A DNA stretch of 64,000 nt from Escherichia coli. Its GTDB lineage: Bacteria > Pseudomonadota > Gammaproteobacteria > Enterobacterales > Enterobacteriaceae. Under the pieces are notes generated by a model. The model had not been told where the DNA came from, searched no databases, and saw only the letters and a list, made by a program, of their open reading frames with translations. Shown piece by piece: positions 7,765-7,890 of this stretch. Both the position numbers and the translations under genes were made by a program. The DNA is taken from NCBI RefSeq assembly GCF_003334785.1, contig NZ_QOWV01000007.1; one strand, written 5' to 3'. Numbering within the stretch: the first letter of the stretch is position 1; every line of letters starts with the position of its first letter.

Positions 7765-7890
7765 AAGTAAATGCCTTATCCGCCTTAAGGTATGAGGGGG
7801 GTTGTAGGCATGATAAGACGCGCCAGCGTCGCATCAGGCGTTGAGCACCATTGCCGGATGCGGCGTAAACGCCTTATCCGGCCTACAAAA
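7765..7890. repeat. REP (BIME-type) palindromic element cluster
   Basis: Three REP-like units, e.g. GTAGGCATGATAAGACGCGCCAGCGTCGCATCAGGCG and GCCGGATGCGGCGTAAACGCCTTATCCGGCCTAC, between convergent yaeF and nlpE. Confidence 0.85.

Follow-up and report, generated by a model that had tools for sequence, protein, structure and literature searches.

The repeat cluster between the convergent genes yaeF and nlpE is REP16 of Escherichia coli K-12, a chimeric ('atypical') BIME in which a BIME-2 unit is joined to a decayed BIME-1 unit. It was studied in a 64,000-nucleotide stretch of E. coli DNA, here called the window, whose numbering is used below unless another sequence is named. An earlier note on this DNA had read the cluster as a REP/BIME element; that reading was right but not new, the element being already catalogued as REP16 in Table 16 of Harris et al. 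2026 (bioRxiv 10.64898/2026.03.23.713779). The local effect of REP16 is most likely exerted at the RNA level. Taken together, the identity with REP16, an origin in the REP family and a local RNA-level role via the Y hairpin are considered highly probable.

Architecture of the yaeF-nlpE spacer

In a sequence search of E. coli genomes, positions 7600-8050 were 100% identical to K-12 strains, the window being the reverse complement of MG1655 at this locus. The RefSeq annotation of MG1655 places nlpE at 215269-215979 (+) and yaeF at 216179-217003 (-), and holds no feature between the two genes, a repeat_region included. In the window the stop codon of yaeF lies at 7760-7762 (+) and that of nlpE at 7962-7964 (-), according to both the ORF list and RefSeq; the spacer is 199 bp long (7763-7961), and the convergent arrangement claimed in the earlier note is borne out by the ORF coordinates and by MG1655. 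The yaeF reading frame in the program-made list (6884-7762, +) would encode 292 aa, its ATG at 6884 lying directly next to the stop codon of proS; the RefSeq protein has 274 aa (825 nt), which would put the start at 6938. This gene is flagged as frameshifted in some strains (sequences L006 and L018 of our comparison), and in Escherichia sp. MOD1-EC7003 (L012) an internal deletion is apparent by eye.

The identity, architecture, hairpins, copy-family membership and polymorphism of the cluster described here were computed. The window was compared with the Y, Z1 and Z2 REP reference sequences of Durrant et al. 2024 (PMC11208160), with 100 dinucleotide-preserving shuffles of the 64-kb window as the chance control for each pattern. 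A complete Y-type REP at 7852-7886 (+) matches the published Y sequence at 35 of 35 positions, and an inverted Z2-type REP at 7803-7839 (-) matches the published Z2 at 35 of 37, with 2 mismatches. To their left, at 7767-7787 (+), lies a truncated Y-type REP consisting of the 3' half ('tail' end) only; it matches 7865-7885 at 18 of 21 positions and aligns to the Y tail of the REP325 repeat unit. None of the Y, Z2 and Y-3'-half patterns was matched in any of the 100 shuffles. The GTAG/CTAC tetranucleotide at the foot of the palindrome, a defining feature of REPs (Ton-Hoang et al. 2012, PMC3333891), is present as CTAC at 7883-7886 in Y and as GTAG at 7804-7807 in Z2. The extragenic location and high copy number typical of REPs were also found: a query with the cluster matched all 5,426 complete E. 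coli genomes sampled, at a median of 36 places per genome among the matches listed, of which there were at most 40 for each.

Neither Y nor Z2, whose loops differ in length, was picked up by a degenerate REP pattern in which the loop was set at 5 nt; the only match of that pattern was REP15, a single REP with a 7-nt loop at 10273-10309 (+), between convergent rof and tilS. This corresponds to MG1655 213630-213673 and is listed in Table 16 of Harris et al. 2026 as a bidirectional terminator. A second pair of Y (+) and Z2 (-) units, arranged tail-to-tail and with 2-3 mismatches per unit to the references, lies at 50352-50438.

Folding gave the strongest hairpin of the locus for the Y REP, at -21.3 kcal/mol on the plus strand and -20.9 on the minus strand (z about -4.9). 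The Z2 REP forms a weaker hairpin (-15.5 and -15.1 kcal/mol; z = -2.4 and -3.0), its stem carrying the substitution ATCAGGCC to ATCATGCC. Each of these two hairpins contains an internal bulge or mismatch, and both units are imperfect palindromes of 30-40 nt that can fold on either strand. The truncated Y at 7767-7787 is not: no significant hairpin was found there on folding (z = -0.8 and +1.0). When Z2 and Y are folded as one long RNA they can alternatively pair with each other, giving a single long hairpin. The earlier note had counted three palindromic REP-like units in alternating orientation. The alternation (+, -, +) is confirmed, and two of the three units are complete; the first is only a half-REP with no significant hairpin, and the cluster also contains a decayed fourth unit (Z1), recognised by alignment of alleles.

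The elements follow one another in the order y', linker, z2, S, y, L and z1', with y common to the BIME-2 and BIME-1 parts. This is the composition of atypical BIMEs, which are BIME-1/BIME-2 chimeras built from y, z1, z2, L, S and flanking linkers (PMC3333891). On the BIME-2 side the characteristic pair is present, Z2 (-) at 7803-7839 and Y (+) at 7852-7886 being separated by a head-to-head 'S' linker of 12 nt (7840-7851) whose sequence GTTGAGCACCAT aligns to AGTCGGCACCAT of the REP325 units. The truncated Y and Z2 are joined tail-to-tail by 7788-7802, which occupies the position of a BIME-2 flanking linker (nomenclature of PMC3333891) and is, by alignment, a diverged counterpart of the linker in the REP325 unit. 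A close BIME-2 counterpart is REP325, between yjdM and yjdN, where the same units, Y and Z2, are likewise inverted relative to each other, the short head-to-head S linker recurs and the tail-to-tail linker takes the same position; one of its repeat units aligns end to end with 7767-7886. REP325, however, consists of six Y/Z2 pairs (12 hairpins), whereas the tandem multiplicity of BIME-2 was not found at the yaeF-nlpE locus, where there is one complete pair and a half unit. REP16 differs from it further in that the outer Y is truncated, the Z2 stem is weakened by substitution and the pair is fused to a BIME-1.

The BIME-1 part lies to the right of the shared Y. An 'L' linker at 7887-7923 aligns to the L of Y-L-Z1 alleles and to that of the BIME-1 at pitA-uspB. 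Within it, at 7900-7912, is an IHF-consensus-like site, ATTCAAAATGTTG, which agrees with WATCAANNNNTTR at 8 of 9 specified positions; nowhere in the spacer is the IHF consensus matched exactly. The linker is followed by a 9-nt remnant of a Z1-type REP, TCTGGCCTG, at 7924-7932 (-), identified by alignment to five alleles with an intact Z1. About 22-23 nt of this palindrome have been deleted, and the conserved tetranucleotide has been lost (GTAG to TCTG). The right-flank motif TTTTGCGTTTGT at 7933-7944 follows the Z1 REP at pitA-uspB and in all Y-L-Z1 alleles. The K-12 form thus shares with BIME-1 elements of the IHF-binding 'RIP/RIB' type, such as that at pitA-uspB, the Y, the L linker, the IHF-like site and the right-flank motif, but its L linker carries several substitutions and its Z1, intact in other alleles, is cut to 9 nt lacking GTAG. 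The mosaic as a whole extends over 7767-7944, or about 89% of the spacer. The element continues beyond the 7765-7890 given in the earlier note, to about 7944.

Alleles of the locus and IS621

The number of BIME units at a given locus is known to vary among strains (PMC3333891), and the pattern at the yaeF-nlpE locus agrees with this. Comparison of unit number and orientation across the 5,426 genomes revealed at least six architectures. The K-12 form (form A; Y'-Z2-Y-L-Z1 remnant, 199 bp) was found in 1,918 genomes, nearly all of them at least 99% identical and including O157:H7. A plain BIME-1, Y-L-Z1, of 154-155 bp (form B) is present in roughly 2,000 genomes; this count adds up 42 + 783 + 1,187 records with at least 90% identity at their best place, identity classes being used because other BIME-1 copies also attain 80% coverage. 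Form C, of about 1.43 kb and found in at least 693 genomes, is form B with an IS621 element in its Z1 REP. Form D, in 522 genomes, has no REP at all; its spacer is the 29-bp sequence TGAAAGCCGGAGAATGCTCCGGCTTTCAA (763-791 of sequence L005; also in E. coli E69), which forms a hairpin with a perfect 12-bp stem (-21.3 and -20.5 kcal/mol), as stable as that of the Y REP. Two further forms together account for 127 genomes: form E, of 173 bp, which is Y'-Z2-L-Z1 without Y and includes ATCC 8739, and form F, of 220 bp, in which all four units are present and Z1 is intact (Y'-Z2-Y-L-Z1). Form A corresponds to F minus part of Z1, and form E to F minus Y and part of L. The census query joining both gene flanks was effective solely for alleles with K-12-like flanks.

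E. whittamii and Escherichia sp. MOD1-EC7003 likewise have form B at the site orthologous to this one. Therefore the BIME-1 at this locus predates E. coli, and the forms containing Z2 are derived. These species came from a scan of species representatives with a degenerate pattern of the nlpE 3' end, which yielded three Escherichia loci only, none of them from E. albertii or E. fergusonii. The REP-free form may be either ancestral or a replacement. The left flank of the Y-L-Z1 allele, CCAGCCTCGTGCACAAAA, permits two alignments and may be either unique DNA or a decayed Z2 head with an S linker. In strain WS4437A-1 (NZ_CP035822.1, 4464777-4465336) the yaeF and nlpE flanks were matched as three pieces over 560 bp, together with an extra feature annotated NlpE, which suggests a local duplication or rearrangement at the spacer.

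The insertion in form C is of an IS110-family bridge recombinase element (1761-3040 in sequence L006; also in L007), and its insertion point corresponds to about 7924-7932 of the window. The junctions read GTAG followed by ATACTG at one end and ATACAAG followed by GCCTGATAAG at the other. The natural target of IS621 is 11 nt long, ATCAGGCCTAC, with a CT core (Durrant et al. 2024), and on the REP strand the element sits in ATCAGGC-CT-AC, which is exactly this target, CT core included. The same exact target is carried by the intact Z1 of other alleles. It is absent from the K-12 form, where the corresponding letters are ATCATGCCTAC in Z2 and ATCCGGCCTAC in Y, and where the CT core is missing from what is left of Z1; in this allele the target was lost via the 22-23-nt deletion in Z1.

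Transcript ends and the Y hairpin

The bidirectional terminators annotated in Table 16 of Harris et al. 2026, 306 in all, form a published set; from the format of the table and a related preprint, we infer its source to be the SEnd-seq study of Ju et al. 2019. Bidirectional terminator no. 15, named REP16 and of the overlapping type, spans MG1655 216053-216093, which is 7848-7888 in the window. Its row gives the Y REP sequence with a folding energy of -20.9 kcal/mol and flanks of 1 A and 2 U, and describes it as 'gene_convergent_transcription', observed in log and stationary phase, with the genes arfB:nlpE:yaeF:yaeQ. The 3'-end positions used here are from this literature: on our reading of the column headings, nlpE transcripts are reported to end at about 7848 and yaeF transcripts at about 7888. 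Both mRNAs would therefore terminate with the Y hairpin, and the 3' UTR of yaeF would also include the half-Y and Z2.

Like a canonical intrinsic (Rho-independent) terminator, the Y REP would provide the mRNA 3' end with a stable hairpin rich in G+C; unlike one, it has no U-tract on either strand, the flanks being CUACAAAA (+) and AAUGGUGC (-). A promoter and terminator scan likewise detected no terminator-like site in 7763-7961, and an intrinsic-terminator reading was rejected on these two grounds. Because it lacks a U-tract and no terminator was found by the scan, REP16 is placed among the non-canonical bidirectional terminators, for which a model of hairpin-induced pausing and polymerase collision has been proposed (bioRxiv 10.1101/2022.10.23.513370). 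The overlapping bidirectional terminators of the SEnd-seq class combine a strand-symmetric hairpin between convergent genes with flanking 3' ends and an absence of A/U tracts. REP16 has all of these properties and, as a listed member of the class, does not differ from it; 78 REPs occur inside the 306 terminators. For the same two reasons, the 3' ends mapped there may reflect RNA processing and not termination.

REPs have been described both as terminators and as blocks to RNA decay; REP325 in particular shows partial Rho dependence and stabilises mRNA (Harris et al. 2026). The same study found that convergent gene pairs with a REP between them are more highly expressed than pairs without, and that, genome-wide, the half-lives of REP-terminated mRNAs are not longer. 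The earlier note had mentioned stabilisation of mRNA 3' ends by REPs in general, which agrees with that work.

How the 3' ends arise at this locus we can only infer. REP16 would have arisen as one copy of the REP family, whose members are disseminated and remodelled by the REP-associated tyrosine transposase and through loss of DNA inside palindromes. Its intact Y REP, predicted to fold into a hairpin with equal stability (about -21 kcal/mol) on either strand, would serve as the 3'-terminal structure common to the convergent yaeF and nlpE mRNAs. The hairpin could pause or dislodge RNA polymerase with no need of a U-tract, via Rho or head-on collisions between polymerases, and it might in addition, or instead, halt 3'-to-5' exonucleases. 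Either way, both 3' ends would be set and antisense read-through would be limited. The obvious alternative to the collision model is that Rho terminates transcription and the 3' ends are then trimmed as far as the hairpin. The main support here for a role at RNA 3' ends, which is indirect, is the strand symmetry of the hairpins in the K-12 and REP-free forms. That a REP-free form with an equally stable hairpin occurs in 522 genomes fits with the hairpin being what matters in this spacer. The allele without Y, found among up to 127 genomes, shows that the Y hairpin is dispensable in nature, the Z2 and Z1 hairpins remaining there.

Other readings and what the element means

Three further readings would give the cluster a function other than that of a shared 3' end. 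The most easily dismissed is that the reading frames running across it, of 68 aa (7792-7998, +) and 63 aa (7841-8032, +), are genuine small genes. Both frames are open in the program-made list, but their starts fall within REP units or linkers, that at 7792 in sequence missing from the Y-L-Z1 and REP-free alleles, and both extend antisense into nlpE; neither they nor a third overlapping frame, of 47 aa (7691-7834, -), is annotated in any of the RefSeq genomes examined. Almost no credence is given to coding here, and the two plus-strand frames are, as the earlier note held, misreadings of the cluster. A more specific proposal is that the Z2 and Y pair encodes a small RNA like naRNA4, binding HU as a 'nucleoid-associated' RNA and helping to condense the chromosome, the role proposed for REP325 units in PMC4550694. 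The pair scores 92.8 bits against the Rfam model RF02564 (naRNA4), well above the gathering score of 59.5, over the full 77 positions of the model (7807-7883, -, with the S linker inside the match), and this is the only Rfam match in the spacer. (Elsewhere in the window, matches above the gathering score were CssrA at 33147-33256, t44 RNA at 34095-34181 and the HtrA 5' UTR thermometer at 43052-43097, all on the minus strand; a 16S rRNA gene truncated by the window edge was matched through its 5' end at 1-170, also minus.) The model was, however, built on REP325, and its consensus is that of a generic BIME-2 pair (Y hairpin, S linker, Z2 hairpin), so that the match only restates the REP identity and does not speak for a nucleoid-organising RNA. 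Moreover, the reported end of nlpE at about 7848 precedes Z2 on the minus strand, and a two-hairpin RNA in the orientation of the model would need read-through. Deletion or overexpression of REP325/naRNA4 also left nucleoid compaction unaffected, and no stable ternary complex was found (Harris et al. 2026). An naRNA4-like function for REP16 is thus very improbable. Rather less unlikely, though still doubtful, is a role at the level of DNA, with gyrase at the Y/Z2 pair and IHF at the L linker relieving positive supercoiling between the converging units. DNA gyrase cuts BIME-2 elements in vivo, mainly at y-type REPs, and its cleavage sites, over-represented there, do not disappear on inhibition of transcription (PMC6379681); an IHF site is common in the L linker of BIME-1 (PMC3333891), and here the IHF-like site, one substitution off the consensus, is kept, as it is in all BIME-1 copies compared. 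The convergent gene arrangement also suits this reading. Against it, just a subset of BIME-2 elements is cleaved (PMC6379681), a single Y/Z2 pair being the minimum; the names nlpE, yaeF and cutF were not found in the supplementary files of that Topo-seq paper; the IHF consensus is not matched exactly; and 522 genomes have a 29-bp spacer with neither REP nor L linker. The earlier note's remark that REP clusters bind gyrase and IHF holds as a general statement according to both of these papers, but the IHF-type site lies outside the 7765-7890 that it had assigned to the cluster.

It is also possible, if on the whole unlikely, that selection has favoured no function for the cluster at this locus, which would make it a neutral or selfish repeat; the ends at the Y hairpin would then be a by-product of the way in which any stable hairpin stops exonucleases. 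The extensive polymorphism in presence and unit number would be in keeping with this, and so would the capacity of TnpA-REP to mobilise and recombine REPs in vitro (PMC3333891) and the genome-wide absence of a REP effect on mRNA half-life noted above. In K-12 only one of the four units is undamaged; the decay of the other three (truncated Y, deleted Z1, weakened Z2) counts against function and is as expected of a largely neutral repeat. On the other side, E. whittamii and another Escherichia species have retained a BIME at the orthologous site, and convergent pairs with REPs are the more highly expressed. Furthermore, on folding, the K-12 and REP-free forms each yielded a hairpin near -21 kcal/mol for both strands, and the remaining alleles examined each retain at least one complete REP palindrome, as known from their sequence and not from folding. 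We tentatively suggest, as a rather improbable conjecture, that the spacer is selected solely for a strand-symmetric hairpin of about -21 kcal/mol serving both convergent mRNAs, a requirement supplied by unrelated sequences in turn (a BIME-1, a BIME-2/BIME-1 chimera or a unique 29-bp hairpin); as a side effect, the Z1 deletion in K-12 would have removed the natural IS621 target, in which about 13% of genomes carry an insertion. Were this true, the natural allele swaps at the locus would be a clean test of a REP hairpin against a plain hairpin.

As an element, the cluster adds little, given that REP16 is catalogued and that REP/BIME polymorphism and targeting by IS elements have been described for decades. 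REP16 does account for the spurious ORFs and shows where the mRNAs of yaeF and nlpE probably end. At a single convergent gene pair there is, moreover, a natural allelic series, in which a hairpin free of REPs stands beside a BIME-1 (alone or carrying IS621), a chimera of four units and a pair of forms missing one unit each; the series could serve to test the current terminator/stabiliser model of REP function.
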